From: a virus
Taxonomy: Duplodnaviria; Caudoviricetes
Virus record (IMG/VR): IMGVR_UViG_3300000101_000005
Length of the DNA: 64,000 nucleotides
Reading direction: 5' to 3' (one strand)
In this document: piece after piece, positions 3 through 51,093 of the stretch
Layout: each line of letters starts with the position of its first letter
How positions within the stretch are numbered: the stretch's first letter is position 1
Made by a program: the position numbers and the translations under genes
Notes under the pieces: model-generated
What the model was told of the DNA's origin: nothing
The model's database searches: none
The model's input: the letters and a program-made list of their open reading frames with translations, nothing else

Positions 3-137
3 AGCCTGTTTGAAATACAAAGTAAACCAGACGAAATTTTTGTTAGTGGTGCCACTGTTGATGACATAGAGATTGTATCTTCTATCACGGCTGCCGAAAT
101 TGGTGCAGCAGGTAGTTCAATAGTGAGTGACACATAA
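3..137 (+). CDS. 3' end of an upstream gene, probably a baseplate wedge (gp6-like) subunit; partial
   Basis: Open frame from the window edge reads SLFEIQSKPDEIFVSGATVDDIEIVSSITAAEIGAAGSSIVSDT*. Its TAA (135-137) overlaps the next ATG (TAATG). The product call rests on position before the tail module and recalled similarity to jumbo-phage wedge C-termini. Confidence 0.45.
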   Translation, partial: SLFEIQSKPDEIFVSGATVDDIEIVSSITAAEIGAAGSSIVSDT

Positions 138-6100: not shown

Positions 6101-9100
6101 CAAAGTAACGATAACAATGAAGTAATATTTACATTTGAGAAAGCACACTTATTAGCTGTTGATGATATATTTGGTATTAAAACAATAGCTGGACTAAATC
6201 AGTTTTGGAAAGTAAAAGCAGTAACAACTAATACAGTTACAGTACAGCATACATTAAAGTATGATGCAGATCAAGGATTTGAACCTAGTACAGGTGCTTA
6301 CCCAATGCTATTAACTGAAGCACGTTTTAGTACTTACGATAACGTTGATGTAGAAAAGTTAGCATTACTAACCGACGGATCAAAGCTATTTGTAGACTCT
6401 AACGTTAACTCACGTTGGGAAGTTGTTGAAAAGAAAAAACAGTTTACAGGTAAGAAAATTATTGACTTTGGTATCATTGATCCAACAAGTGTTGGTAAAA
6501 AAACAGTTTACAGTGATACACTTAAACAAGTTATAGTTGGCATACCTGATGTAGCAAGGGTAGGAGTTTATATTCAAGGTGCAACTGGTCTATCGTCTAA
6601 GCAATTGCTTGAACCACCAACATGGTTAACAACAGATGTTACAGGATCGTTTGGTCTTGAACTGGCATTAAGCCCAGATAGCAATTGGTTGATGGTTGGC
6701 GCACATACAGCAAGTGGCATTCCTAATAGATACAAAGGACCGTTTGATGTAAATGCAAACTACCTAGTCAACGATATTGTTTTATACTCAGGAAGACTTT
6801 ATAAAGCACAAGATAATATTAACGGTGACGGTAGTACTATCGACGTGTATAGTAACGAATGGGTTGAAGTACAGAAAATTAAAGCTGAACAAGATGGTTC
6901 AAATGCAGGAGACTTTGAGACAGGGGTAATATTCATTTACCAATACCAAGCTCAACAGTGGAACTTGTTTGACATACAGGTAAGTCCAAGAACTACACAA
7001 AATGAAAGATTTGGTCAGAAGATTGCAGTTAGTCAAGCAAGTAGTACAGGACCTTATTACATGTCAGTATCAGCACCTGGCTCACAAGATGCAAAAGGTC
7101 GTGTGTATCTTTACACATATGATACAACAGATGGCTGGCACTTAGACTATAATAAAAATTATAAAGGCATTTATGCTGCTGATGATTCTACTTTCTATCC
7201 TAAGGACTCAATTGTATTTTCAAATGGTGATATGTGGAAAGCATTGGTTGATAATGTTGCAGACGGAAGCTCATTAACAACTGGATCAAATGATTGGGTA
7301 CTAATGGACGAAGTAACAACAGGTGCTTCGCTTCCAATATCAATTGCGACTAACGATGATGGCTCAACACTTGATGCTGGGCTACTTGATGATCAACAAC
7401 TTACTGAATTAATTAAAGAAGACGATCGCTTTGGTACTTCTATAGCAATGAACTATGACGGAACAATACTAGCAGTAGGCGCACCTAACAGTGACAGTCA
7501 GTACTTTTCAAACTATAAAGGCCACTGGAGACCTAACTACGAATATGCACAAGGAGATACAGTCAAGTATCAGGGCGGGTATCATCAGTTACAAAACCTA
7601 GGACCAAGTGCAGTAGGTGCAGATAGTACAATTAGAAGTTATAACGAAGCTCCAGATGCTGGTGAACCTTGGGTTAACGTAGGTGACAGTACTAGTGTTG
7701 CTTCAGGCAAAGTTTACATTTATAAAAAGAACACTGCTGGAGTTTATAGATTACTACAACAAATAAACGCAGATGCTTTACCATACCTAAGTGATCTTGA
7801 TCCAAGCGAAGTTATTAGTTCAGGTGATAAGTTTGGATATGCAATTGGCTTAGACTATTCAGGTAATACATTAGTTGTAACTAGTCCATTAGCAGACAAG
7901 AACTTCCAGAATCAAGGTAGTGCTTACGTATTCAAATATGATACTGACTCAACAGAATTTGCTTACAGGCTAAAACAAAAATTAACAAGTTATTCAGATT
8001 ATCCAAATGAAATGTTTGGTCAAGATATTTCAATATCAAGCGGCACGGAAATAATTGCAATTGGTGCAACTAACTCTCCGTATGTATTGCAAACTAGATT
8101 TGATGCTTCACAAACATTATACGATAGTAATAGAACTACGTTTAGAGACTATGATGGCTTTGCTGGTGCAGTATATGTATTTGAGAAAAAAGGTACAAAT
8201 GAGAAATTCTTCTTATCAGAAAAAATTGACGAAGCACTATCTTTAAATGAATCATTCGGATTTAGTTTATATGCTACAAGAAATGCTATTGTAGTTGGAT
8301 CACCTAACTTTATATCACCTGCATCATCAGGTGTTGATATTTTATTTACAGGAGCCAAAACAGGTACAGTTAGATTATTTGAAAAAACTGAAGGACAAAA
8401 TTCACTAAACATTATTGGCTCACAACCACAGACAGTTGACATTGATAAGTTTAAACGTATTTCATTATACGATACAGAAGATGATACAAAACTTCTTGAT
8501 TTAGAAATCTTTGATCCTGCTAAAATGAAACTGTTAGCAGAAGCAGAAAGAGAGCTTTCGTATAAAGTACCATATGATCCTGCAATATATTCAAATGGTA
8601 CAGCAGAAGGCGCAGTAGTTGACGATTCAATTTGCTGGAAAACTAGAAATGTAGGTAAACTATGGTGGGATATTTCAACTGCTAAATGGTACGACTATGA
8701 GCAAGGCTTAGTATCATATAGAGTAGGTGCTTGGGGTGCATTGGCTCCTGGAGCATCAATTGATATTTACGAATGGGTAGAGTCTAAGTTATTACCATCG
8801 GAGTGGGCAACAATTGCAGATACTAACGAAGGATTACCGTTAGGCATATCAGGGCAACCTTTGTATGCAGACGATAGTGCTTATAGTATAAAAGCAGAAT
8901 TTAATCCTAACACAGGATTGCAAACAGAAGTTTATTATTACTATTGGGTAAAAAATAAAGTTACTGTACCAGAAGGTATTGCTGATAGATCTATTTCAGC
9001 AGGTGACGTGTTTAACTTAATTAATGATCCTTCAGCGTTAGGACAAACCTACGCAGCGTTTATTGATAAAGATAAGTTTTTATTATTCAATTATAAATCA

Positions 9101-12100
9101 ACAGTAGCAGACAGTTCAGCTGTTCTTAATATTGAATACTTTACACAGCAAGAAAATCAAAATCAGATACACCAAGAGTATCAACTTCTTACTGAAGGTG
9201 TTGCAGATAGCTTACCAACAACTTCATTAGAAAATAAATGGATTGATAGTTTAATTGGTTACGATGTACAAGGTAATAGAATACCTGATACTAATTTGCC
9301 AGCAAAACAGCGATACGGTATTAGTTACAGACCAAGACAAAGTATGTTTGTTGATAGAAAGACTTTATTAAAAACTTTAATCACAAACGTTAATGCAATT
9401 ATGCACAAAGAACCATTTGCTGATTCATTAGACTTTACAACATTGAACTCAGTTGATACTAAACCAAGTTCTTTGTTAAATTTATACGACACAACAGTTG
9501 ATACTTACACTGAGTTACTTGAAGTTGGTACATCTAGAACTAAGCAGTGTTCATTACGTGCAAATATTATCGATAATGAAATTAACTCTATTGATATATT
9601 AAGTGCAGGGTTTGGATACAAGATACCTCCTACTATTGAATTTGAAGGTGACGGAACAGGTGCAGAAGCAGTTACTACAATTGACAACCAAGGTAGAGTT
9701 AATAGTGTAACAATTACTAATAGTGGTAAACTTTATACCTATGTTGCTACTAAGCCAAGACAGTTTAGTGTGCTTGTTGAAAGTGATTCAACAGCTGAAA
9801 ACTTCTGGAGCATTTATGCTTGGGACGATACAAGACAATCATGGTACAGAAGTAGATCACAAGCATATAACACACCATCATACTGGTCATATGCTGACTG
9901 GTGGGACAACGATTTTGGTCCTACGTCAAGGATTATATCAGAAATTATCAGTGTTTACGAAGAGCCAACTATAAATGTTGAAATTGGTGATTTGATTAGA
10001 ATCAAAGAATACGGTTCAGGCGGATGGGCAGTGTTTAAGAAAACTGCTAACGTTTCTAATGGTGCTATGAACAATTACGATTTGATTGGTAGAGAGCTAG
10101 GAACTATACAATTTTCAACAACGTTATATGACACAGCACTAAGTGGTGTTGGATTTGATAACGTAGATTCATATGATATTGACTTTTATGATAAAGAAGT
10201 TTCAAATGAACTTAGATTTATTTTACAAGCATTGAAAGAAGATATTTTAATTGGAAATTATGCAGTTGAATGGAATAACTTATTCTTTACATCTATTAGA
10301 TATGTTTTCAAAGAACAAACATACGTTGACTGGGCATTTAAAACTAGTTTCTTAAATGCAACACACAATGTTGGCACATTAAAACAAAAAACTAATTATA
10401 GAAATGATAGTCTTGAAAGCTACTTAGAATACATCAATGAGGTTAAGCCTTATAGTACAACTGTAAGAGAGTATATTAGTAAGTATAATAACTTAGATAC
10501 TGCAAATTCTGCAGTCGCAGACTTTGATTTACCTCCTTATTACTCAGAAGAGAAAGGTAAAATTGTTCCTGTTGAAGGCGCAGACAACATACTATCAACA
10601 TATCCTTATAAATTCTGGAACGATAATAAAGGATATCAAATTACAGAGATTAGTGTTGCAAGTAAAGGTGCAGATTATACAGTAGCACCTAAGGTATCAA
10701 TTACAGGTGGTAATGGAACTGGAGCAAAAGCAACAGCATACGTTTCAAACGGTAAAGTTACAGGAATTACACTAACTGAACACGGTACAGGATACACATC
10801 AACACCAACAGTTTCGCTTATAGGCGGAAACGGAACATCACCGTCACTTGCAAGAGCAGTTGCAGTACTAGGTAACGGTAAAACACGTTCTATGAGTGTT
10901 AATATGAAGTTTGATAGGATTTCTAAAACAGGTATCTACAGTAACTTTACACAAACTGAGTCATTTACTGCTACAGGGTCAACGGCTGTGTTTAATTTAA
11001 CATATCCGCCAACTAGAGACAAAGCAAAAATATCAATTATTAATAATGGCCAAGTAGTTCTTAATAACGAATACACTATATCGTTGTTTACTTTAGAAAC
11101 AGATGTGTACAAACAGTTAAGAGGTAAGATTACATTTGTAATTCCACCAGCTCAGAACGATATTGTTACAATTACATATGAAAAGAATGATGAAATCTTA
11201 GATAGTGTAAGTAGAATTACAAAATACTATAATCCTTCATCAGGTATGGTAGGTAAAGAGCTTGATCAGTTAATGACAGGTATCGACTTTGGTGGTGTTC
11301 AAGTACAAGGTACTACATTTGATGTTACAGGTGGCTGGGACGCACTTCCTTGGTTTACAGACAGTTGGGATAGTGTCGAAGCAGCAGCAGATTACTACTA
11401 TGTTGCAGATGGAAGTACAATTGGTGTAACACTTCCTTATATTCCTACAGACGGACAAGTTATTAACGTTTACTTAAAACGTGCAGGTATTGTTGTACCT
11501 GACGATATTCTTAATTTACAAACTGAAGAAGGCGTTGATGCTCCACCAACACTTAGAATTGATGATCCTAATTATACAGACGCTTGGGATAGTTCGATAG
11601 CAACCAATCCTCATGCACAAATGCCAACATTTATAGGTGACGGCAGCACAAAAGTTGTAGAAGTAGGCGCATATGTTTCAACAAATCCAGGAGATATCTT
11701 AATTTTCCGTCCTGCAGAAAGCGATGGTGCTGTAACTATTAATGATAATAACTTGCTAGATACAAAATTATCAGGTGGTACTTTATCAGCAATGGGTGGT
11801 GCTTATGCAACCGCAACAGGAACACGAGCAGAAGACATTTCAATAGACGGCGGCGAATATACTAGCCCAGACCAAGTTCCTGCAACAGAAGAAAACGTAC
11901 CCGGACAGGTTTTAGACAGTTTAAGTATTAAAGTATTCCATTCAAATCAAAATGCAACAGGTGCTCCTATTAAGTCTAATGTTAGAATAGGTGACGGATC
12001 AACATTAACATATCCTATAGGACAAAAAATTATTGAAAACAAGTCAGTGATAGTATATGTTGACGGCTTAAAAGTTGAACCAGCAACATATACAGTTAGT

Positions 12101-13918
12101 GTTACTAACAGTACTATTGAATTTTCAAGTGTACCAGCACAAAACTCTAAAATTGAAATAGTTTCAATTGGAATAGGTGGTGTATCAATACTTGATTACC
12201 AAGAATTTATTGCAGACGGTGATACTACATTATTCTTAACCAATGCAAATTACGCTGACACTTCAAATATATTTGTATCAGTTAACGGTGTTCAGTCTGA
12301 CACTGGCTTTATATCTAGCACAGACTTATTGCCTGACACACCAAATAGAACATTGGTACAATTTGGTATAAAACCTGATAGACTAGCAGTAATTAGAATA
12401 GTTGCATTTAGTGCAGCAACAGATGTTGATAGTTCATTACAATCTCTAATTAGAGTTAACCAACAAGAGTTTACATATGACGGTAGCACTAAGAGCTATG
12501 ACTTAGATACATTTGTACAATTAAGTAGAGATAGTGCATTAGCATCAACTATTGTTGAAGTAAACAATAAAAAACTAAAAAGTGTTGATACTGTTTACAA
12601 TATCTACGATGGTGTAACTAAAAAGTTTGTAATAGGAGTTGATCCTATTGTATCATCAGGTTCTATTGTTCCTAACAATATTAAAGTTTTTATTAATAAC
12701 GAATTAAAAACATTCATTACAGATTACGTTTATAATGGTACAACAAAAGAGCTTGAGGTTACTGCGGAAAATTTGACGGTCGGTGATGTTATTAAGATTG
12801 AAAATAACCTAGGAGCAGAATACTCTGTAATTGGTAACAACATTGTTATTAACGATTCAACAGCACTAACATTAGGAGATACTATTGATGTTACTTGGTT
12901 TAGTGAATATCCGTCCATGGATATTGTTAGCGATCTATATACAGGTGGTAAAGCATTTTATCCTATAGCATTTAAACCATTGGGTGTAAGTTACACTTGG
13001 GTTTATAGAAACAAAAATAAACTAATACAAGACGTTGATTATAGACTAGATGTTGAAAGAGGTGTTATATATATTGAAGGATCTAATAAAGAAACAGATG
13101 TTTTTGAAATTATAGCGTTTGGTTCTAATGTATTTGCACTACCAAGTGCTTATCAACTTAGCAAAGACATGTTAAACATTAATAGATACTCTAGATATGC
13201 TATCACTGATAGTTTAGTATTAGCAAAAGAATTAACTTACTATGACGAAACTATTACACTTAAAGACGCTTCTTCACTGTTTGATCCTGTTGCAAGTAAC
13301 AATGTACCAGGCATTATTGAAATCGACGGTGAGAAAATTGAATACATAACCAAAAGTGGTAATGTACTAAGCAACTTGAGAAGAGGTACACAAGGTACAG
13401 CAATTAAGACTTTAAGCTCAGTAGGAGAATATGTGGTTGATATAAGTACGGATCAAACTATTCCGTACAAAGATACACATTCAAGAACAGATTTTGTTAG
13501 TGATGGAAGTAGCCAGTTAATTGGTCCTCTTCCTTTTACTCCTAAGCTAAGTACTGTTACAGATTGGTATCAAGGTACTATTCCAGCAATTTATGGAAGA
13601 TGTGACTCGATTGAAGTATTTGTTGGAGGTAAGCGATTACGCAAAACATACATAGATCAGTATAACGAAACTATAGGTTCAACTAGCCCGGCGGGCGATG
13701 AGAAGGTTGAAGCTGAATTTAGTGTTGACGGATCGTCAGCATATATTAGACTAACAAATGTGCCTGCGGCAGGTACACGAATTAGTATTATAAAACAACA
13801 AGGACAAGTATGGTACGATAGAGGCCAAAATACTGCTACATCAGGCGTTACACTGCTTAAAAACAGTACTCCAATTAGTCAGTTCATTGCTGCCAATACA
13901 TCGAAGTTACCTGAATAA
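137..13918 (+). CDS. Giant (4593 aa) virion structural protein, probably baseplate wedge/tail-associated; multi-domain
   Basis: Uninterrupted 13.8-kb ORF. It has FG-GAP-like beta-propeller blades (FGQKIAVS, FGTSIAMNYDGTILAVGAP, FGYAIGLDYSGNTLVVTSP, FGQDISIS, FGFSLYAT) and about six CBM5/12-like aromatic modules (e.g. WTPYYDYKLGDIVSYRAYKY, WRPNYEYAQGDTVKYQG). It also has ITxxGxGYTxxPxV-type repeats seen in T4-like structural proteins and C-terminal beta-sandwich repeats. It lies between a wedge-like gene and fibre genes. Confidence 0.7.
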   Translation: MADNKKFPNSEIPIRKSKDLLPTVFQTPANDKFLSGVLDPLVQPGVVDKTVGYIGKRYGKTFTGNDVYLDTDQTLRSRYQLEPAVTVEENREIKKFKDYIDLKSMIEFFGNANERDDKTTEQEHYSWNPPIVWDKFVNYREYYWIPGGTPSIDVYGQAANIQSTYKVGTGINSWLVTPDSVTNNPDIILYRGQEYKFEINSPEEGFYIRNNYDTGSLEFNTNKAYFPGELAVFNKQLWKCVNETSPLDGSSITIDSQDWKLVSNDAGFASLLYRDGVEGNGTKVGTVTFKVPQNSPDILYYQSDVSPNRLGRFIISDIDSNTFINVDKEIVGKKDYTTADGLEFTNGLVVEFRGQVQPSKYAEGQWLIEGVGNEITLIRFADLVPPPLDTDSPDILFDNQGFDTQPFDDASQYPGNKDYITISRNSKDSNPWSRYNRWFHRTVLESAFKLRNQDFDSLESARAKRPIIEFLPDIQLYNHGGIAKQTVDYVDTFTDDVFSKVEGSQGYNIDGEFLFEGARVLVIADTDSLANNRIYEVKFVKHNNTTQINLKETADTLSAFNEGVLVRRGTVNSGKMYHYDGTTWKLSQEKIATNQAPKFELYDSTGVAFSNETTYPVSSFVGSNLLGYKVGSGVVDTELGFALTYANINNVGDIVFDWSFETEKFTYTLLQKQYSKNTNTGFYKINGVYANGWIATDKTYIQPIIDQYTFNTSDSIGIFNTVEWETLPSNALINFYLNGEYISNTYTRSANQFTFDRTFSINDVLTVKVVAAVKPDQGYYQIPAGLEKNPLNEQLKTFTLGQATDHLKSSLEFDRRVIGSVPGVSNLRDVDGYQKHSTRFMKHSGFAAVSTLLVNDKDVNIVKSLRYAKSAYTIFKQNIIKKAIEVEFNENTSDFLDNIIENITKTKTIESPFADSDMIGAGAFTKTDYVVDDPGIKNFTLNENFDLTTLSRKAAYVYLNDVQLIVGKDYEVNGALGFITIKGTLVPGDRLEIREYVSTAFSHVPPTPSSLGLYPKYEPTKYLDDTYRVPKDIIQGHDGSKTTAYGDYRDDLLLEFEKRVFNNIKQEYDPAIFDVQKALGGYYGNSTFTKEELDNVINQEFLSWVQNTNLGYTTNDYFVDTEPFTYTYSNMTDPTGKENLPGYWRGVYKYFYDTDRPHTHPWEMLGFSIKPSWFDTEYGVAPYTNGNLVLWEDIAQGKIAQGTRAGIYPRYARTTILNHIPCDCDGKLVDPLTSGLAGNFQLVNNRGPFKLGDDSPVENAWKTSSEYPFAITTALALLKPFDYLVLNFDRSVTKRNIINQLVNVTSDTFLKPTDLKFPVAGTTQVAGLAMYIASYIKSKGASVAEAQKNIDNINVRLSSRVSGFVDKQQQKYLLDSKNPSSASASVFIPPENYDIIFNVSSPISSVTYSGIIFEKTTQGWVVNGYDDINPYFNTFETFPQQKDPVISVAGTSEPFATWEQEKRFNNGGIIQYRGTFYRATATFTSGETFDKSNLVQLPDLPVANAVTAQQRRNFNSFKVKKVSYGTEFNKVQDVVDFLLGYQAHLKSLGFDFANYDGTNQVVQDFVTASKEFMYWTVHNWAVGSVLSVSPGASNMDVKLAVGVADNLLDSFYDYSVLKADGSAIDPKFINVSRSFQNISISTTNTTEGIYLLKLNYVLKEHVVVFDDKTVFNDTIFDKATGYRQERIKAQGFRTTDWDGDYTSPGFLFDNVSFDTWTPYYDYKLGDIVSYRAYKYTAKGNHTSEEEFNDNNWTQLDSTPEKQLVPNFDYRINQIEDYFDVASEGLGKSQRDLARHTVGYQSRTYLENLSEDPTTQFKLYQGFIREKGTPNAITKLFTKLGDNTSTAAVDLNEEWGFRLGRIGGVDQSERLEIRLDTDKFKLNPQPVLVEASAQDKVDRYYRVDSTNFEFGPTPFTTAINPVSYDSTPVLTAGYVAVGQTDATVTNRDEILNLAITTISDNDHIWVTFDGPSWTVLRANTVYDLKITNVQSNDNNEVIFTFEKAHLLAVDDIFGIKTIAGLNQFWKVKAVTTNTVTVQHTLKYDADQGFEPSTGAYPMLLTEARFSTYDNVDVEKLALLTDGSKLFVDSNVNSRWEVVEKKKQFTGKKIIDFGIIDPTSVGKKTVYSDTLKQVIVGIPDVARVGVYIQGATGLSSKQLLEPPTWLTTDVTGSFGLELALSPDSNWLMVGAHTASGIPNRYKGPFDVNANYLVNDIVLYSGRLYKAQDNINGDGSTIDVYSNEWVEVQKIKAEQDGSNAGDFETGVIFIYQYQAQQWNLFDIQVSPRTTQNERFGQKIAVSQASSTGPYYMSVSAPGSQDAKGRVYLYTYDTTDGWHLDYNKNYKGIYAADDSTFYPKDSIVFSNGDMWKALVDNVADGSSLTTGSNDWVLMDEVTTGASLPISIATNDDGSTLDAGLLDDQQLTELIKEDDRFGTSIAMNYDGTILAVGAPNSDSQYFSNYKGHWRPNYEYAQGDTVKYQGGYHQLQNLGPSAVGADSTIRSYNEAPDAGEPWVNVGDSTSVASGKVYIYKKNTAGVYRLLQQINADALPYLSDLDPSEVISSGDKFGYAIGLDYSGNTLVVTSPLADKNFQNQGSAYVFKYDTDSTEFAYRLKQKLTSYSDYPNEMFGQDISISSGTEIIAIGATNSPYVLQTRFDASQTLYDSNRTTFRDYDGFAGAVYVFEKKGTNEKFFLSEKIDEALSLNESFGFSLYATRNAIVVGSPNFISPASSGVDILFTGAKTGTVRLFEKTEGQNSLNIIGSQPQTVDIDKFKRISLYDTEDDTKLLDLEIFDPAKMKLLAEAERELSYKVPYDPAIYSNGTAEGAVVDDSICWKTRNVGKLWWDISTAKWYDYEQGLVSYRVGAWGALAPGASIDIYEWVESKLLPSEWATIADTNEGLPLGISGQPLYADDSAYSIKAEFNPNTGLQTEVYYYYWVKNKVTVPEGIADRSISAGDVFNLINDPSALGQTYAAFIDKDKFLLFNYKSTVADSSAVLNIEYFTQQENQNQIHQEYQLLTEGVADSLPTTSLENKWIDSLIGYDVQGNRIPDTNLPAKQRYGISYRPRQSMFVDRKTLLKTLITNVNAIMHKEPFADSLDFTTLNSVDTKPSSLLNLYDTTVDTYTELLEVGTSRTKQCSLRANIIDNEINSIDILSAGFGYKIPPTIEFEGDGTGAEAVTTIDNQGRVNSVTITNSGKLYTYVATKPRQFSVLVESDSTAENFWSIYAWDDTRQSWYRSRSQAYNTPSYWSYADWWDNDFGPTSRIISEIISVYEEPTINVEIGDLIRIKEYGSGGWAVFKKTANVSNGAMNNYDLIGRELGTIQFSTTLYDTALSGVGFDNVDSYDIDFYDKEVSNELRFILQALKEDILIGNYAVEWNNLFFTSIRYVFKEQTYVDWAFKTSFLNATHNVGTLKQKTNYRNDSLESYLEYINEVKPYSTTVREYISKYNNLDTANSAVADFDLPPYYSEEKGKIVPVEGADNILSTYPYKFWNDNKGYQITEISVASKGADYTVAPKVSITGGNGTGAKATAYVSNGKVTGITLTEHGTGYTSTPTVSLIGGNGTSPSLARAVAVLGNGKTRSMSVNMKFDRISKTGIYSNFTQTESFTATGSTAVFNLTYPPTRDKAKISIINNGQVVLNNEYTISLFTLETDVYKQLRGKITFVIPPAQNDIVTITYEKNDEILDSVSRITKYYNPSSGMVGKELDQLMTGIDFGGVQVQGTTFDVTGGWDALPWFTDSWDSVEAAADYYYVADGSTIGVTLPYIPTDGQVINVYLKRAGIVVPDDILNLQTEEGVDAPPTLRIDDPNYTDAWDSSIATNPHAQMPTFIGDGSTKVVEVGAYVSTNPGDILIFRPAESDGAVTINDNNLLDTKLSGGTLSAMGGAYATATGTRAEDISIDGGEYTSPDQVPATEENVPGQVLDSLSIKVFHSNQNATGAPIKSNVRIGDGSTLTYPIGQKIIENKSVIVYVDGLKVEPATYTVSVTNSTIEFSSVPAQNSKIEIVSIGIGGVSILDYQEFIADGDTTLFLTNANYADTSNIFVSVNGVQSDTGFISSTDLLPDTPNRTLVQFGIKPDRLAVIRIVAFSAATDVDSSLQSLIRVNQQEFTYDGSTKSYDLDTFVQLSRDSALASTIVEVNNKKLKSVDTVYNIYDGVTKKFVIGVDPIVSSGSIVPNNIKVFINNELKTFITDYVYNGTTKELEVTAENLTVGDVIKIENNLGAEYSVIGNNIVINDSTALTLGDTIDVTWFSEYPSMDIVSDLYTGGKAFYPIAFKPLGVSYTWVYRNKNKLIQDVDYRLDVERGVIYIEGSNKETDVFEIIAFGSNVFALPSAYQLSKDMLNINRYSRYAITDSLVLAKELTYYDETITLKDASSLFDPVASNNVPGIIEIDGEKIEYITKSGNVLSNLRRGTQGTAIKTLSSVGEYVVDISTDQTIPYKDTHSRTDFVSDGSSQLIGPLPFTPKLSTVTDWYQGTIPAIYGRCDSIEVFVGGKRLRKTYIDQYNETIGSTSPAGDEKVEAEFSVDGSSAYIRLTNVPAAGTRISIIKQQGQVWYDRGQNTATSGVTLLKNSTPISQFIAANTSKLPE

Positions 13919-44186: not shown

Positions 44187-44753
44187 CTAACTCCCATAAT
44201 TTCCAACGTTTTCCCACGGATAAACTAACCAAACATCTTCTTCTGATTTGTTTATCTCGTGACATGTATAACTAACAGGTAATACAGTTTCACTTGCTAA
44301 GTTATCTGTTAGCGTAGCAATACGAACATTACTACCCCAAATTTGATTCCATAATGGACTATCTGGTAAACAGTTGCTTTGCCAATCTTTTGCAATCCAA
44401 TTAAATGTAGCACCAGTATCATTAATATCATCTACAATAAGAATTTTTTTACCTTCTGGTAAATTGTTAAACTGTCCCATCTCAGGAGCATAACCACCAT
44501 CTTCATCGTAGCCGTAAGCATCTTCAGCCATCCAGGAATTACTTTCAGGCCCGATATCGGAATCACGTAACCTAACATCTAGTGTGTGCATTTTAGTGTT
44601 TAAGTAATGGCTGAGCATTACTGCTGGGATTAACCCACCACGAGTAATACCTACAATATACTCAGGCCGCCAGTTGTCAGCATAAATTTGTCTAACAATC
44701 TCTAAGCAATATTGCTTTATGTCATTATGTGTTAAGTATCTTTTTTTAGTCAT
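44187..44753 (-). CDS. Type I phosphoribosyltransferase (purine salvage-like)
   Basis: IVGITRGGLIPAVMLSH, PRPP-binding loop ILIVDDINDTGATF, and a C-terminal WLVYPWE as in xanthine/guanine PRTs. Confidence 0.85.
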   Translation of the reverse strand: MTKKRYLTHNDIKQYCLEIVRQIYADNWRPEYIVGITRGGLIPAVMLSHYLNTKMHTLDVRLRDSDIGPESNSWMAEDAYGYDEDGGYAPEMGQFNNLPEGKKILIVDDINDTGATFNWIAKDWQSNCLPDSPLWNQIWGSNVRIATLTDNLASETVLPVSYTCHEINKSEEDVWLVYPWENVGNYGS

Positions 44754-44773
44754 TTTATAATCTCTTTTTATTC

Positions 44774-45235
44774 TTAAGAAAGTTTATATTCATAGTTGTC
44801 TGTTGTTAAGTTCTCTTGAAGTGTAAAAGCGCCATTTCTTAAATGGAATTTTTTTGCTATTGCTGTTTTTGGACTAAGTGTGACTAACCGGTTGACTTTT
44901 GTTTGGCCTTGAAGGCTTCTTATTAAGTCTATTATTAAGTTTCGTCCTGCACCTATTTTTTTACTCCAAACTGTGTATGCTATTGCAATACTACCATGTT
45001 GTCCGTCTTGATGCGCTGCTTGACTTAAATAGTCTAGTTCTTCAACATTGGTTGGTATCGCATTGCAGTAAGCTACACATACCGCCGCTTTATACTCTCC
45101 GTCTAGAACTAGTGCCCAAATCTGACGTCCTTTTGCTAATCTAAAATCTAGCGTTAACTCAGGACGTACTGGATCATCTTCGGTGTTTAGTTGAAGTTTC
45201 TTATAATTATCGAAAGTGATCTGCACTAGTTCCAT
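44774..45235 (-). CDS. Hypothetical protein, possibly GNAT-like fold
   Basis: YTVWSKKIGAGRNLI and AKKFHLRNGA loosely resemble GNAT motifs A and B. Confidence 0.35.
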   Translation of the reverse strand: MELVQITFDNYKKLQLNTEDDPVRPELTLDFRLAKGRQIWALVLDGEYKAAVCVAYCNAIPTNVEELDYLSQAAHQDGQHGSIAIAYTVWSKKIGAGRNLIIDLIRSLQGQTKVNRLVTLSPKTAIAKKFHLRNGAFTLQENLTTDNYEYKLS

Positions 45236-45249
45236 CTTTAACGCTTCCT

Positions 45250-48200
45250 TTAGAATTTCCAGTTGAGCTTAACGCCTAAGCTCGTCTGATCGTTGTTTTT
45301 TGTACCTGCAACATTTAAGCGATGCTCGCCATAGCCAGCCATGCTAAACCGATCATCTACTTTATATTGTACAAAAAGACCTAGGTCATGTTCAATAACT
45401 TTCGTACTGGCATCAGCACTACCTTCATTAAACTTTACTTGACCGTCGATAGTACGCCCTACGGGGACTTTGTAGTGCATATTACCGCTCATGATATTTA
45501 GCGGTTGGCTATAGCTGGCTCCCATCATCCAACCTTGAGCTGGTTTTACCCCGCCACCAACTGCAAAACTTCTGCTTATTAGACTGTCGTAACCTGTAAT
45601 TAGACTAAAGTCTTTACTAGCTTCAACATCCGTCATACCTAGCTGAAGGTTACCAAAGCCAAACACTTGATCTGAGAAGTTGTGTTTAACACTAAGGCTT
45701 GCATAGTTTGTTGTGTGATTCTCACCAACACCCATATACCCTTCTTGCACGTTATTAAGGAACTTTCCAGTTTCTTTAACAAAACCTAGTCCGAAGTCTA
45801 CTTTAGTATCTTCGTCCTTATGGATTGCATAACCTAACTTTGCTAGGTAATCACCACCCACATTAGAGTTTGTTTTAAGGCTACCAGTAAATCCCATAAT
45901 TTCAGGTATTGCTAGGTTAGCGTCAGTTGATGCTAGATTAGCATAAGCATCGTAGTTTCCTGCATTAGCATTAGCACCGCTAAATGCCATCATTTCTACG
46001 AAACTACCAGGGCGAGTGTCAACCGCTTGCGTATTGTCTAGATTAATTGAATAATCACGCTCAAAATCATCTAGCACCATTACATTACTTAATGCTGAAA
46101 ACGCTTGCTTGTTAATGTTACCAACAGCCGCTCCACCACTTAGATTAGCGATGTTGCTAATGCCACCACTTGTACGCCCACTGGTTGGAATACCAACTGC
46201 ACCTACAGGCTGTGTAGCATTATCCAAGTCCAACAATCCACTGCCGTGTACGCCTGAATCATAACCTGCAATTGTCTTATCAGCAGTAGTAGTAACCAAC
46301 TTTACAAGGTTCTCACCTTTCATGTGTGGCCACATTTGGTTAAGGATAGCCAATGCACCAGTAACCTGAGGGGCCGCCATGGACGTTCCACTCATGTCAA
46401 TTGTAGCATTTGCATCGCCTTTATTTGCACTACGGACACTCATGCCAGGAGCAAGAATATAGAAGTCCTTCATGCTAGCGGCATCTTTACAAACATTTGC
46501 TGATTCATCGTAAGTAGTACAAAGGTGTCCACCTTTAGCACCCTGAACAATTTGGTTGTTCTGATCCCAGTTTCCAACAACTAACATACGTCCGCCTAGG
46601 ATAAGATCACCATTCGCATCAGTAGCAGTTGCCATCTGTCCAGTACCAAAAACAACATCACTAGTTTGGTTACCAGCACTGTTAACAAGTACTTGTTCAG
46701 TGCCTAGTGCTGCCGCCCATAACGGGGCTTCATCGATAACACCGTTATAACCATACTGTCCATAAAAACTGTGGCTAGACTTAAAGTTTCCGCCACCCAA
46801 GTCAACAATACTGCTTCGCAATGCACTGTCTGAATTGTAGTTAGCACTTACGTTGTAAGCAATACTACCTTTATCAGCAGCCCAGCTTGCACCTTGACGA
46901 GCTCTGCCAAAGCTATAGCCGTTGCTGTCAGTAATCTTAACTACTGCAACATCAGCATCATATGCTACACCATGGATACCAGTGCCGTTCTTACGGCCGG
47001 CTGCAATGCCCATAACGTGTGATCCGTGTCCAACATTATCGTTCATGTTAGATGAATCGCCAGTTAAAGTATTGTAGACATGCTTTGCTTCCAAGTCATT
47101 ATGGCTAGTATTATAGCCAGTATCAGCAATGGTTACCAAACTACCTTTGCCAGTCCATCCACGGCTATATGCTACATCTGCCTTAATAATATCTTTAAAA
47201 ACAGTATAGCCTGCACCTTGTCCGTCCAAGAACTCAGCAGTCCTGTGGTTTACACCAACAGCGGCGGTTGTCTTAGTACCAAGATGTGCCATGTTAACAC
47301 CGGAAACATCGTCTTCTGCCTCTTCAGCAACTTCTTCTTCGGCAGATTCCTCAACGGCACCTACCATAGTAGAACTCATTACCTTTACCCACTCATCGTT
47401 AACTACTGTATCAGCAGTGTTAACAACTACCACTGTTTCTCCACGGATTAGTTCTTCTTTACCATCCGTCCATATTTTTTTAGTAACTGGAGTTGTTTTC
47501 GTTGTAGTGGTAGTGGTTACAGTTGCTACTGTTTTGTAATGTCTGGTAACTGTATTATAGTTATTACCATCTACAACAGCTGAAGTAGTCTTGTCTTCAT
47601 GAGTTGTTACAAAAACTGGATCAGATTCTGCAACTTCTGTAATTACTTCGTTAGTAACCGTCTCACTTGTAACAACATGTTCTGTAGTTGTTTCTACTAC
47701 TTCGTTGTCAGCAACTTCAACAATAACTTCATCTTCTGTAACTGCATCAACTTGATCAGTATCGTCATGTGTGTATACATGTCCGTCTGCATAAGTGTAT
47801 ACAGTAACCTTGGGATAGGTAGTTGTTGTTGTAATAGGAGTTGTTTTAGTAACAGTAGTCTTACGCAACGTTTTGTGCAAGATACTTGTGTCAGGCTGAA
47901 CTTCCTGTGTTGCACGATCTTCAAAAACACTTTCTGTCTTTGTTTCGCCACGGGCAACAACAACAGTTGCTTCATTTTGCAAATCAGTAGTATAACTGAT
48001 TGTTGAAGACATCTCTTCAGTACTAACCTGAGGAGCTGCATCAAAAGTCTGCTGGTTTACAACTTCACGAATTGCACCCTTGTCTTCTTTAGTACTGCCG
48101 TCACTAAAAACAGTAGTAGTAACGTTCTGTACCTTAAGGGTAAATGTACGATCATACTCCATGTTCTTTGTAGTAGTTTTCGTCCATGTTGCTGTACGTG

Positions 48201-48852
48201 TTAGGTTACTAACACTATCACCACCAGTAACAGTTTGCTCGCCATTTGCAATGTCAGTTGACTTGACACGCTCTTCGGAGTTAGTTGTTGCTGATGTTTC
48301 TACTGTTACTGAGCTAGTAGATGCACTTATAACTGTTGGAGTGGCGCCTTCAAAAATAGCAGCCTTCTGATCAGAAATTTTCTTGTCCAACGTTTCCTTC
48401 TTTGCGAGGAATTCAAAATCTTGGGTATCATAGCTGCCACCTTGGACAACCTTGTTTACTACAGGCCGTAGATCTTCTTTGAGAATCTTAACAACGGCTT
48501 CAGCTTCTCTCCACTCTTCGGTGGATAATTTAACTGCAAGTAGTTTTGGGTTCATGCTGGTCTTATATTCTTCCCAGCTATTAATAACGTTATCGATCTG
48601 GCTAACAACGTCGCCTGCCATTTTTACATCGGTAGCGTTAGGGTTAACTAATGCACTGATACTAGCACTGCTCTGTGCTACTGCAACCACTTGCTCCAAT
48701 TCGGAGATCTGGCTACTAATAGCCGCAAATGCGCTATTCGTTGTCAGTCCACTAGTAGCATTGCGTACAGCATTCGCACCATCGCCTGGATTACAAGCGG
48801 TTAGTGCAGACGTAGCCATAAGCAATCCTATAGTACTGCTTTTAAGTTTCAT
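45250..48852 (-). CDS. Lipoprotein subtilisin-like serine protease (S8) with Thr/Val-rich stalk repeats and autotransporter-like beta-barrel C-terminus
   Basis: Lipobox ...ATSALTA-C. Catalytic D (VTIADTG), H (GHGSHVMGIAAG), oxyanion N (NSAGN) and S (GTSMAAPQVTGA). G.GLLDL..A linker, alternating beta strands and a terminal LGVKLNWKF. Confidence 0.85.
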   Translation of the reverse strand: MKLKSSTIGLLMATSALTACNPGDGANAVRNATSGLTTNSAFAAISSQISELEQVVAVAQSSASISALVNPNATDVKMAGDVVSQIDNVINSWEEYKTSMNPKLLAVKLSTEEWREAEAVVKILKEDLRPVVNKVVQGGSYDTQDFEFLAKKETLDKKISDQKAAIFEGATPTVISASTSSVTVETSATTNSEERVKSTDIANGEQTVTGGDSVSNLTRTATWTKTTTKNMEYDRTFTLKVQNVTTTVFSDGSTKEDKGAIREVVNQQTFDAAPQVSTEEMSSTISYTTDLQNEATVVVARGETKTESVFEDRATQEVQPDTSILHKTLRKTTVTKTTPITTTTTYPKVTVYTYADGHVYTHDDTDQVDAVTEDEVIVEVADNEVVETTTEHVVTSETVTNEVITEVAESDPVFVTTHEDKTTSAVVDGNNYNTVTRHYKTVATVTTTTTTKTTPVTKKIWTDGKEELIRGETVVVVNTADTVVNDEWVKVMSSTMVGAVEESAEEEVAEEAEDDVSGVNMAHLGTKTTAAVGVNHRTAEFLDGQGAGYTVFKDIIKADVAYSRGWTGKGSLVTIADTGYNTSHNDLEAKHVYNTLTGDSSNMNDNVGHGSHVMGIAAGRKNGTGIHGVAYDADVAVVKITDSNGYSFGRARQGASWAADKGSIAYNVSANYNSDSALRSSIVDLGGGNFKSSHSFYGQYGYNGVIDEAPLWAAALGTEQVLVNSAGNQTSDVVFGTGQMATATDANGDLILGGRMLVVGNWDQNNQIVQGAKGGHLCTTYDESANVCKDAASMKDFYILAPGMSVRSANKGDANATIDMSGTSMAAPQVTGALAILNQMWPHMKGENLVKLVTTTADKTIAGYDSGVHGSGLLDLDNATQPVGAVGIPTSGRTSGGISNIANLSGGAAVGNINKQAFSALSNVMVLDDFERDYSINLDNTQAVDTRPGSFVEMMAFSGANANAGNYDAYANLASTDANLAIPEIMGFTGSLKTNSNVGGDYLAKLGYAIHKDEDTKVDFGLGFVKETGKFLNNVQEGYMGVGENHTTNYASLSVKHNFSDQVFGFGNLQLGMTDVEASKDFSLITGYDSLISRSFAVGGGVKPAQGWMMGASYSQPLNIMSGNMHYKVPVGRTIDGQVKFNEGSADASTKVIEHDLGLFVQYKVDDRFSMAGYGEHRLNVAGTKNNDQTSLGVKLNWKF

Positions 48853-48861
48853 ATTTACCTC

Positions 48862-48941
48862 TTACTCTATGTTTTAGTATGGTACACAGCTCATCTGTGC
48901 AAACCATACTCTTATGTTAACATAGAGTAAAGGATCGTCAA
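48862..48941 (-). promoter_or_regulatory. Putative sigma70 promoter (TTGACG-N16-TAACAT) overlapped by nested inverted repeats upstream of the protease gene
   Basis: 12-bp inverted repeat 48862-48873/48919-48930, inner 8-bp repeat 48876-48883/48903-48910, innermost CACAG/CTGTG. A GAGG ribosome-binding site follows immediately. Confidence 0.55.
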
Positions 48942-48954
48942 CCGTTCTTGAAAC

Positions 48955-49299
48955 TTATTTTTTGTTTAGTAGTTCCCAGGCTTTGTAATGTTCTTGTAGT
49001 TTGCTAAATTCTTCCCATTTAGCTTTTAGCTCTGGGTGTTCGTCACAAAGGTCGTTATCTACGATGTAAGTGTTTTTCTTAACTTGCACTGTGCCAATTG
49101 GATCGCCATTTACTCCCCAAGGGCGACTAGCAGCCCAGCCATCATCTGGCCATTCTGTGTGCATTTCAACACTGTCCAGTCTTTGGCGACCAACACTGTC
49201 CAGTCTTTGGCGACTCTGATAATCACTAAAGTCTCTAGCGTATATTGTTAAGCCGCCGTCTGGTGACTCGTAAATTTTAGGTTTTTTAGTATCTGCCAT
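48955..49299 (-). CDS. Hypothetical protein
   Basis: Likely start ATG 49299 (MADTKKPKIYESPDGG...), overlapping the PMM 3' end by about 52 nt. Confidence 0.5.
   Translation of the reverse strand: MADTKKPKIYESPDGGLTIYARDFSDYQSRQRLDSVGRQRLDSVEMHTEWPDDGWAASRPWGVNGDPIGTVQVKKNTYIVDNDLCDEHPELKAKWEEFSKLQEHYKAWELLNKK
49167..49214. repeat. Perfect 24-bp tandem duplication (in-frame, RQRLDSVG/E twice)
   Basis: CAACACTGTCCAGTCTTTGGCGAC at 49167-49190 and 49191-49214. Confidence 0.95.
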
Positions 49300-49961
49300 G
49301 TTTCTTCCCAGTTTTTTACGTGTGATACTTGACAAGTTTTTCTCTTTTTTATGCGACTAGCAATACTGTAGTCATTTCCACTGGGATCGCAACGATCACC
49401 AAAGAAGTGTATAGGATTGCCGCTAAAGTATTTAAGTACTTGGGATTTATCATTACCTTTAGGATACACGTCAATGCCTGTTTCTCCACCAACTTCTGCA
49501 GCTAAGTCATGAAACTTGCTTCTAATTAATACTGAAATACGTTGTCTTTCGTTATTTTCTTGATCCCATTTGTAATAGTTGGTTCTTTGGTCACCAACTG
49601 AGTTTCTCCCTACTATACTAAAATTAAGCATACCTGGCCTAACTTCAATATGGTTACCGTGTCTTTCTAAATATGGGCTATTGGATAAAGTTTGCTCTAA
49701 AAACTCTATTAATTCGTTACTGGGTTTCCAGCTATTTTTTGCTATATGCTTCCCTCGTAGATAAACATCACTGCCACTGCAATTAAAACAATAATGTGCC
49801 TGCTTAAACACATCCTCTCCTACTTGCTCTATAGTTTTTGGATAATCACTGCCTGTAACTAAACTAAAATTTGGCAATGTAAGAAAGAACTTTTTAAAGT
49901 CTGGATCCATCTGACCCCGGCTTGGGGTCAAAGTTCCGTCCACATCGAATAACAATATCAA
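49248..49961 (-). CDS. Eukaryotic-type phosphomannomutase (HAD subfamily IIB)
   Basis: LFDVDGTLTPSR, LVTGSDY, HIEVRPGMLNFSIVGR, GGETGIDVYPKGNDK and FFGDRCDPSGNDY match PMM1/2-type motifs; TTG start. Confidence 0.85.
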   Translation of the reverse strand: MILLFDVDGTLTPSRGQMDPDFKKFFLTLPNFSLVTGSDYPKTIEQVGEDVFKQAHYCFNCSGSDVYLRGKHIAKNSWKPSNELIEFLEQTLSNSPYLERHGNHIEVRPGMLNFSIVGRNSVGDQRTNYYKWDQENNERQRISVLIRSKFHDLAAEVGGETGIDVYPKGNDKSQVLKYFSGNPIHFFGDRCDPSGNDYSIASRIKKRKTCQVSHVKNWEETWQILKNLKFTSHQTAA

Positions 49962-50393
49962 TTACTTTTCCACTTCTGGTTGCATAGATTTTAGATATAC
50001 AATAGTTGCGGCACGTTTCTTTTCCTTTTTCTCACGGAAACTCATTCTTGTACCTTTAACCATCTTTTTACTCTTAGTAAGCCATTGGTCCATTAACTCA
50101 ACAGTCCATACAGGATTTTCTTCTGCCCATGCTCTAAACTTCTTACTATACTTGTAGTCTTCATTTTTAGCAGTGCCGCGGTTAAATATATTCCAGAGGT
50201 TTGGTCCCATCTTGTTTTTGCCATCTTCTGCAATGGTATGACAGGATACACACTTTTTAAATGATTTTTTATCTATTGGTATTAACCTAACCTCTGCCCA
50301 GGATGGTGTAACTATTAACGCTGTTATTACTAGTGTCCATATTATAACCTGTGTTGCTATTATTGCTGGTGTTGATAATAAAATTTTTAACAT
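49962..50393 (-). CDS. Class I cytochrome c (cytochrome c2-like) with N-terminal signal/membrane anchor
   Basis: Hydrophobic leader, heme motif CVSCH, KMGPNLWNIFNR, YSKKF and axial Met in KGTRMSF. AGGAG ribosome-binding site before ATG 50393. Confidence 0.85.
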   Translation of the reverse strand: MLKILLSTPAIIATQVIIWTLVITALIVTPSWAEVRLIPIDKKSFKKCVSCHTIAEDGKNKMGPNLWNIFNRGTAKNEDYKYSKKFRAWAEENPVWTVELMDQWLTKSKKMVKGTRMSFREKKEKKRAATIVYLKSMQPEVEK

Positions 50394-50406
50394 TGTTTTT
50401 CTCCTT

Positions 50407-51093
50407 CTACTTACATACGAATCCTTGCTGAAGTTTAATATTGTCCATAAACTCTTTTTTACAACCAGGATCGTTATGGAAACTACCACGCAAGATAGTT
50501 GTTTGTGTCAAACTACTAGTGGCCATGATGCCACGGTTCTCACAACATCCATGAGTTGCATGTATATAGACACCAACATTATCACTGCCTGTGGCTTGTT
50601 GAATCTCATTAGCAATAACCATGTTAAGTTCTTCTTGCAGCGTTCCACGTCTAGCACACCATTGTGCAATTCTTGTGTATTTACTTAGGCCAATAAGTGT
50701 ATCAGCAGCAATAATGCCAATGTATGCAACTCCACTTACAGGCTGATGATGGTGTGAACATACACTTTTTATCTCACTACGTACTACTAACATACCATCA
50801 TAGCTATCAGTAGTGTTAGGAAAGGCAGTTGCGTTGGGTCTGGGCAAGTACCTACCACTCATAATTTCGTTAATGTACATCTTAGCCAATCGTCTGCCAG
50901 TGTCCATGCTGTTTGGATCATTCTCTTTATCGATTACCAAACTATCTAACACTGCTTCAAACTTTGGTGTAAGTTCTTCAATAAGTAGATCTGTTTCTCC
51001 ATCCTGGATAAATTCACTAATGTTGTCACCAGCCCAGTAACGAGCGCCAGATTCTTGTATTCGTTCTCTAATAATTTCGGAAGTCTTTGTCAT
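50407..51093 (-). CDS. folE: GTP cyclohydrolase I
   Basis: DTGRRLAKMY, SVCSHHHQP, GLSKYTRIAQWCARR..LQEEL and ATHGCCENRG (Zn ligands C, H, C). Confidence 0.92.
   Translation of the reverse strand: MTKTSEIIRERIQESGARYWAGDNISEFIQDGETDLLIEELTPKFEAVLDSLVIDKENDPNSMDTGRRLAKMYINEIMSGRYLPRPNATAFPNTTDSYDGMLVVRSEIKSVCSHHHQPVSGVAYIGIIAADTLIGLSKYTRIAQWCARRGTLQEELNMVIANEIQQATGSDNVGVYIHATHGCCENRGIMATSSLTQTTILRGSFHNDPGCKKEFMDNIKLQQGFVCK

Follow-up and report, generated by a model that had tools for sequence, protein, structure and literature searches.

In the 64,000-nucleotide (nt) stretch of the IMG/VR virus record IMGVR_UViG_3300000101_000005 (Duplodnaviria; Caudoviricetes), which is called the window here, a single open reading frame (ORF) of 1200 amino acids (aa) plus stop, with an ATG start, occupies positions 45250-48852 on the minus strand. 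Its protein, P0001, is described by the ORF, Pfam and structural models as a lipoprotein subtilase with a C-terminal outer-membrane barrel. The gene is a phage gene, not host contamination, and it is accessory and moron-like, with its own promoter, a presence/absence pattern and a deviant composition. On balance, we favour the reading that this accessory gene encodes an envelope protease which is held at the outer membrane, exposed on the surface, and remodels the surface of the host.

The Peptidase_S8 domain (aa 561-880; 46213-47172, minus strand) was found by Pfam, alignment, AlphaFold2 and VIA. PF00082, the sole Pfam family in P0001, matched aa 568-860 with 95.5 bits against a cut-off of 21.8. 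The initial annotation had read an intact S8 triad, and the alignment agrees: D577 (DTG), H609 (HGSH) and S824 (GTSMAAP), together with the oxyanion residue N728 (AGN), are invariant in 58 sequences, and P0001 is apparently an active subtilase as far as its sequence tells. The pair C778/C788, 10 residues apart, is also invariant in the 58 sequences and makes up, with the lipobox Cys, the 3 Cys in all 1200 aa. Autotransporter passengers tolerate few Cys with one short-range pair. With the 58-sequence alignment, the AlphaFold2 model of aa 530-1200 reached a mean predicted local distance difference test score (pLDDT) of 86.7, and the Foldseek and VIA matches of this 671-aa model were dominated by subtilisins. 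For the S8 domain, VIA gave thermitase (Z 35.2), the Ssp passenger 8e7f (Z 34.6, 299 residues aligned) and fusolisin 8axg (Z 23.3). Since the score of 8e7f is tied with that of free subtilases such as thermitase, these matches show the S8 fold and nothing autotransporter-specific.

The C-terminal part (aa 978-1200; 45253-45921, minus strand), which ends in ...KLNWKF, is predicted by models, VIA and alignment to be an outer-membrane beta-barrel of 12-14 strands. In the model of aa 530-1200, residues 978-1198 are all-beta, and the pLDDT of this block is mostly >85. When aa 880-1200 were modelled alone (pLDDT 82, predicted template modelling score 0.79), 14 DSSP strands were obtained, with a short first hairpin. 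Strong in/out hydrophobic alternation was found in 9 of the 14 strands on the family alignment, and the C-terminal residue is F, Y or W in at least 90% of the 58 aligned sequences (Phe in P0001). We compared the barrel with 48,161 PDB representatives by VIA, and the best 50 matches were all outer-membrane barrels (Z 9.2-13.1), headed by OmpT of V. cholerae and by OmpG (both Z 13.1), CymA (12.6) and FapF (12.4). Autotransporter barrels scored level with or under porins (EspP 11.2, NalP 10.7, BrkA 10.5, Hbp 10.4 and AIDA-I 10.0), and the solved OprB 4gf4 had Z 9.2. Foldseek on the barrel agreed, with OmpT scoring 3.7e-4 and NalP (1uyn) in ninth place (1e-3). The initial annotation had staked its reading on a barrel-like C-terminus ending in Phe, and these models and matches uphold it.

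Between the protease and the barrel lies the linker motif TxPVGAxGIPTxGR (aa 880-893; 46174-46215, minus strand; from alignment and model), in which seven positions are invariant. The motif falls within a low-confidence stretch of the model, which is probably flexible. It is followed by the conserved pre-barrel segment (aa 906-977; 45922-46137, minus strand), which contains VMVLDxFERD and DTR, consists of short strands and helices (alpha/beta), and may plug or thread the barrel. Linker and pre-barrel segment are co-conserved with the barrel in all relatives, and by analogy the three together resemble the "translocation unit" of autotransporters.

At E<=1e-3, a profile of linker and barrel retrieved 2037 clusters (50% identity), a number that falls to 957 at E<=1e-10; in the full-length proteins listed, the match is C-terminal or nearly so. 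In the Atlas searches, the cluster labels, which are automatic, are mostly Pseudomonadota. Pfam has no model for the barrel family, and we found no characterised member in it. Peptidase_S8 was detected in 51 of 52 distant full-length members and PF03797 in none (0 of 52). Likewise, among 80 viral loci collected by the barrel profile, every ORF not clipped by the locus start contains an S8 domain. These relatives and viral ORFs indicate that S8, linker and barrel make up one conserved unit, to which a variable N-terminal extension is joined. We also looked in phages for the same barrel with a non-S8 passenger, and no such protein was recovered among the uncut ORFs of the 80 viral loci. As a lead only, the ESM Atlas shape search hit a 100% viral cluster of about 774 aa with FG-GAP repeats (template modelling (TM) score 0.65 over residues 6-321 of the linker-barrel model).

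The same unit occurs in bacteria of the SAR116 group. In SAR116 (Ca. Puniceispirillum), a chromosomal copy with a lipobox and poly-Gly sits among panB, panC, ggt, gcvP and a DEAD-box helicase gene. The SAR116 copies (e.g. L028:7623-9779) are 700-750 aa long, have a short N-terminal region, and are 38-40% identical in the module. By the barrel profile there is one copy per genome in two SAR116 genomes, and PF03797 was not found in the same two genomes, which are possibly incomplete. The phylogeny against host homologues that the initial annotation had proposed was built for the module with FastTree. The synteny-verified phage copies form three well-supported clades and the second phage lineage (see below) a fourth, with the SAR116 copies lying outside all four; the rooting is weak, and no direction of transfer is inferred.

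P0001 begins with MKLKSSTIGLLMATSALTA, followed by the cut site and C20 (LTA|C20). The signal peptide with the lipobox L-T-A-C20 (aa 1-20; 48793-48852, minus strand) was recognised from the sequence and the homologue alignment: a basic n-region (MKLKSS), a hydrophobic h-region (TIGLLMATSA), LTA and C20 satisfy the signal peptidase II lipobox pattern [LVI][ASTVI][GAS]C. The lipobox seen by the initial annotation is well founded, the Cys being invariant across 22 close homologues. Lipoboxes were also found in distant phage and SAR116 copies, often with poly-Gly after them; none was found in the L030 copy. The +2 residue of the lipobox is Asn, not Asp. We infer lipidation at Cys20 and insertion into the outer membrane. 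Next comes a conserved region (aa 36-190; 48283-48747, minus strand), delimited by alignment and hydrophobic periodicity and belonging to no known family. Its sequence probably forms four helices of about 25 aa each, interrupted by Pro/Gly. A 100-degree hydrophobic periodicity at aa ~81-140 is crude support for helices, and the helical N-terminal region of the initial annotation stands to this extent.

The Thr/Val-rich acidic module (aa 196-520; 47293-48267, minus strand), defined by alignment, composition and motif spacing, consists of three repeats. It contains 21.5% Thr, has a net charge of -33 and ends with an acidic run (aa 500-518). The hairpin motifs [FYW]xDG occur at FSDG249, YADG354 and WTDG461, each with a Thr-rich strand before it, at spacings of 105 and 107 (about 106 aa). 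Three such motifs appeared in 0 of 20,000 shuffles of aa 191-520, and the three repeats of about 100 aa that the initial annotation had noticed are confirmed. They are visible only through the motif spacing and weak profile-profile similarity between repeats (E 5e-4 to 0.017), and a self-BLAST of aa 1-560 showed no repeats. The number of such units differs among relatives. For the N-terminal part, the ESM Atlas feature search retrieved nothing, the homologue search with aa 21-530 returned fragments of P0001's own family only, and none of the window's remaining ORFs, those for tail fibres among them, resembles the module. In the close clade the module is conserved about as well as the catalytic one, its mean column identity being 64% against 46%, the two values coming from different sequence sets. 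From clade to clade the N-terminal module is swapped wholesale, and S8, linker and barrel stay constant. Conservation within a clade together with replacement between clades fits a specific, lineage-dependent target. The initial annotation had placed the protease on a rod-like stalk, and this is not supported: as the Thr/Val module precedes the protease in the chain, it cannot raise the enzyme off the barrel, and no more than about 95 residues separate protease and barrel. A tether to the lipid anchor or a target-binding or targeting part is a possible role for the module; a stalk is not.

The tail-fibre genes lie on the plus strand of the window and the protease gene on the opposite one, with QueE-like, FolE, phosphoribosyltransferase (PRTase), HIT, phosphomannomutase and 5'-3' exonuclease genes as neighbours. 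P0001's cluster was located on a 217-kb contig. On 17 further contigs, including viral ones of 136 and 307 kb, the genes are arranged alike (FolE ... protease ... PRTase ... QueE ... exonuclease), and this order is kept even in copies whose protease is only 41% identical. Besides, a second group of large viral contigs contains a homologue of 1160-1230 aa with quite different neighbours (Lon/ClpB-like ATPase, DnaJ, peptide deformylase, M15 peptidase and cytidyltransferase). In this second lineage, Cu/Zn superoxide dismutase and staphylococcal-type nuclease genes are also nearby (L035 1-19492 and L013). In the second-lineage proteases, about 50 aa extend beyond the barrel, so that the terminal residue is not aromatic. 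Near-identical DNA was present in sequencing runs of 14 studies, mostly marine. The contigs from these DNA runs crossed neither gene junction intact, and it is the synteny on independent contigs that argues against misassembly. The claim that the gene is encoded by the phage and is not contamination from the host therefore stands, supported by synteny on independent viral contigs and by the second jumbo-phage lineage. That it would be an unusual cargo is not supported as put: the gene recurs in several marine jumbo-phage lineages, though patchily within them.

For the accessory status, we fetched relatives through the neighbouring PRTase gene, not through the protease. Of the loci recovered, 61 reach across FolE as well as PRTase, and the protease is present in none (0 of 61). 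FolE adjoins PRTase in the closest ones, and others hold 2-9 kb of different cargo. This absence and the varied cargo indicate that the protease gene is cargo of a variable slot, not core. The FolE-PRTase interval (window 44753-50407; L037-L115) is a hot spot of variable cargo in its own right, ranging from direct adjacency to ~8.9 kb of unrelated genes, and the order of FolE and PRTase is reversed in some relatives. The protease gene has a guanine plus cytosine (GC) fraction of 0.40-0.43, the highest in the window, versus 0.33-0.39 elsewhere. A DNA search with 20 kb against cultured phages gave no match, a protein search gave S8-domain matches only (25-35% identity), and PADLOC had no match for P0001 or for either of its small neighbours.

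Upstream of the gene there is a sigma-70-type promoter (48914-48941, minus strand), recognised from the sequence and by comparison of loci, with TTGACG, 16 nt, and TAACAT with a TG extension. TTGAC and TGnTAnnAT are kept in the window and five related loci (six in all) and the spacer sequence varies, which is good evidence that the promoter is used. Right after the -10 box, at the predicted 5' end of the mRNA, an 11-bp hairpin (ATGGT-TT-GCACAG / CTGTGT-ACCAT; 48879-48907, minus strand) was read from the sequence. It is also found in L001, L005 and L007, and it might stabilise or regulate the transcript. The Shine-Dalgarno sequence AAGAGG (48858-48863, minus strand), likewise read from the sequence, lies 5 nt ahead of the ATG. 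No T4-type late box was found upstream of the gene, and the promoter suggests early transcription by the host polymerase. An early-type promoter and a location outside the structural module make a virion part not likely. In two metatranscriptome libraries there are contigs that span the greater part of the gene with >=99% identity; with DNA carry-over possible, this is weak evidence of expression and gives neither strand, 5' end nor level. No terminator was found after the protease gene, and the next gene begins 15 nt downstream.

In the mechanism that we propose, the precursor would be exported by Sec and lipidated at Cys20, and its 12-14-stranded barrel would be inserted into the host outer membrane in a manner dependent on the beta-barrel assembly machinery, through the beta-signal with the terminal Phe. 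By means of the unit of S8, linker, pre-barrel segment and barrel, the infected cell would then carry an active subtilase at its outer membrane, probably from an early stage onward. The passenger (helical domain, three Thr-rich repeats and S8) would be exposed on the surface in a type-V-like way, with the barrel fixing one of its ends and the lipid anchor the other, and the Thr-rich module would act as a tether or bind the target. There the protease could cut surface or outer-membrane proteins, and such destruction of receptors would block superinfection and the re-adsorption of progeny. An enzyme made early with its own outer-membrane barrel would be a new viral way to rewrite the host surface, and it could affect who infects abundant marine bacteria, the escape of progeny from debris and the nitrogen supply of infected cells.

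Several observations weigh against a surface-exposed passenger of the autotransporter kind. PF03797 had no match to aa 880-1200 at E<=10, and the family profile found nothing among PDB sequences at E<=10. The model has 14 DSSP strands, compared with the 12 expected of a classical type Va barrel, and only short helices ahead of the barrel, the long pore helix being absent. The barrel is nearly always paired with S8, unlike the promiscuous autotransporter barrel, and 19 of the 52 relatives carry ankyrin repeats, which are atypical for surface passengers. The nearest named clusters in the ESM Atlas shape search are OprB-type porins (TM 0.58-0.61), including an "iron uptake porin" cluster that bears SLH domains, and the N-terminal SLH domains of such SLH-bearing OprB porins are periplasmic. 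Apart from the missing PF03797 and PDB sequence matches, these points would suit a tethered protease that faces the periplasm. The barrel would then be a mere anchor, as it is in porins with periplasmic N-terminal domains, the lipid would be embedded in the outer membrane's inner leaflet, and S8 would work on envelope proteins from the periplasmic side, for example on receptor plugs, on tethers between membrane and peptidoglycan, or on the ejection proteins with which other phages enter. The strict coupling of S8 and barrel suggests an anchor co-evolving with its protease and not a general translocator, and PF04966 matches 2 of the 52 relatives. The longest VIA alignments are with the plugged barrels FadL and TodX (224 residues from model residue 66), whose plug enters the barrel from the periplasm; however, autotransporter barrels also align well ahead of strand 1 (EspP from residue 40, AIDA-I from residue 28). 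PF04966 itself did not match aa 880-1200 at E<=10, and given this and the TM of 0.58-0.61, the likeness to OprB is a lead and not a membership. The ESM Atlas feature search with the barrel returned unnamed clusters and, at 0.86, both OprB and autotransporter clusters, again at the level of leads. As modelled, the C-terminus would be an outer-membrane barrel of a different, undescribed family. The passenger is poor in Cys and has one short-range Cys pair, which speaks for the surface, and so do the linker that is co-conserved with the barrel and the usually extracellular modules on some relatives: Calx-beta on 20% of one cluster, or an adenovirus-shaft-like repeat, both of the extracellular type. 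A subtilase that is active and unregulated in the periplasm at an early stage would also put at risk the very cell on which the phage depends. Finally, NalP and SphB1, the sole characterised precedents with lipobox, S8 and C-terminal barrel, are surface-exposed (PMC9289746). We regard the periplasm-facing protease as an unlikely alternative. On orientation alone, our guess is that the surface is probable and the periplasm doubtful.

As the function of the protease, the remodelling of host surface proteins is weakly favoured. The main rival of this reading is nutrient scavenging, in which the enzyme, at the same site on the envelope, would digest external protein, dissolved or particulate, and supply an infected cell short of nitrogen with peptides and amino acids. 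On this view, the phage would boost a host-derived function, as cyanophages do with pstS. The chromosomal homologues stand among housekeeping genes of free-living SAR116, near panB, panC, ggt and gcvP, and lie outside the phage clades in the tree. The very large family with its mostly pseudomonadotal labels, the early type of the promoter and the advantage of cell attachment in dilute seawater would agree with scavenging, too. However, the large lineage-specific N-terminal modules of 350-900 aa, which the phage copies have gained and the SAR116 copies lack and which are under purifying selection (64% mean column identity), point to a specific target rather than to bulk protein, the neighbouring genes that we scanned include none for the transport of peptides or amino acids, and the distribution among close relatives is patchy. 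As guesses on the class of substrate, surface remodelling and scavenging are equally tentative, and as a complete explanation we find scavenging quite improbable. The remaining alternative, a virion component or bacterial DNA misjoined to a phage contig, could draw on the PHROGs "protease" family phrog_3677, which matches aa 395-881, on the highest GC in the window, and on homologues in bacterial metagenome-assembled genomes. Yet lipobox and beta-signal mark a protein of the host envelope, and the gene stands on the strand opposite the tail-fibre block, among DNA-modification genes and behind a sigma-70-type promoter. Against a misjoin, the identical gene order is seen on many independent contigs from different studies. 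Two of the matches in bacterial genomes are probably binned phage contigs: L025, whose genes are arranged as in the phage, and L024, which has retained the phage neighbour o44774. This last alternative is very improbable.

The neighbouring genes give further information on the slot. A 153-aa GNAT/malonyl-CoA decarboxylase-like gene (44774-45235, minus strand) begins 15 nt downstream of the protease gene, is probably co-transcribed and travels with it. Its protein has no signal peptide and a GNAT-like motif, and a few homologues match PF05292 (malonyl-CoA decarboxylase). The gene is present in 14 protease-bearing loci, in two arrangements, and absent from all 79 protease-lacking loci fetched through PRTase. 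Since the family is very abundant (7992 matches among 8000 candidates), the link may reflect lineage and not function. Just upstream, a 126-aa gene with no family match (48955-49335, minus strand) also travels with the protease gene and is confined to protease-bearing loci (L001, L004-L007, L011 and L021-L023). The same variable slot holds a gene for a 175-aa membrane-anchored c-type cytochrome (49962-50489, minus strand), an unusual phage cargo, with an N-terminal hydrophobic segment, the haem motif CVSCH and a PF00034 match of 34.5 bits (cut-off 21.3); the L007 copy is 92% identical. A eukaryotic-type phosphomannomutase gene (49248-49961, minus strand; PF03332, E 7e-33) belongs to the same inserted block. 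Ahead of the tail-fibre genes there is an ORF of 4593 aa (137-13918, plus strand).

Among the closest known systems are NalP of Neisseria meningitidis and SphB1 of Bordetella pertussis, the type proposed by the initial annotation. They are lipidated subtilisin-like type Va autotransporters that process surface proteins (PMC9289746, Group 15). Like them, P0001 joins a lipobox, an active-type S8 domain and a C-terminal outer-membrane barrel in one polypeptide, and by analogy its expected job would be the processing of other surface proteins while held at the surface. To this extent the assignment holds, and it fails in the details of barrel and order. The barrel of P0001 does not match PF03797, and as modelled it has about 14 strands and no long pore helix; the gene is encoded by a phage. 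Subtilisin-like autotransporters follow the order of protease (~400 aa), beta-helix stalk (~200 aa) and barrel (PMC9289746). P0001 departs from it, running from lipobox, helical region and Thr-rich repeats to S8, a linker of about 95 aa and the barrel, with no beta-helix stalk between protease and barrel and a 540-aa module N-terminal to the protease. Similarity to the NalP/SphB1 group is limited to S8, since the NCBIfam EprS model scores 51.6 bits against a cut-off of 1700, and the passengers of Ssp from Serratia marcescens (8e7f) and fusolisin (8axg) likewise share the S8 fold with P0001. OprB porins (PF04966; cyanobacterial SLH-OprB) are like P0001 in shape, and some of them also have an N-terminal non-membrane domain, SLH, before the barrel. 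Their barrels are larger and function as channels, and to our knowledge no OprB porin carries a protease.

Phages are known to equip the host envelope with small lipoproteins and membrane proteins of their own. T5 Llp, T4 Imm and Sp, and lambda Lom and Bor are phage-encoded, non-structural and directed to the envelope, and all are small and non-enzymatic; T5 Llp is an early outer-membrane lipoprotein that blocks the phage's own receptor, and its complex with FhuA is, by entry title, PDB 8a60. P0001 is like these proteins in being phage-encoded, non-structural and, as predicted, envelope-bound, and unlike them in being a large enzyme. Among the described superinfection-exclusion proteins of phages we know of no protease and of none that comes with a beta-barrel of its own, and our literature search turned up no account of a barrel-bearing subtilase encoded by a phage. 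Close counterparts are the uncharacterised bacterial proteins with S8 and this barrel, such as those of SAR116, which share lipobox, S8, invariant linker and barrel with P0001. Unlike them, the phage copies add 350-900 aa of lineage-specific N-terminal modules with Thr-rich repeats. It is conceivable, though doubtful, that S8, linker, plug and a barrel of about 14 strands constitute an undescribed self-anchoring or self-exporting outer-membrane protease system, distinct from type V and widespread in marine Pseudomonadota, which several jumbo-phage lineages have taken up, fused to fibre-like targeting modules, and apparently use as an early receptor-destroying enzyme. In that case, P0001 would be the first example of superinfection exclusion by a protease and of a phage-encoded protein equipped with a beta-barrel of its own. 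Set beside these systems, the topology of the barrel would either extend the concept of type V secretion or define a new class of outer-membrane-tethered proteases.

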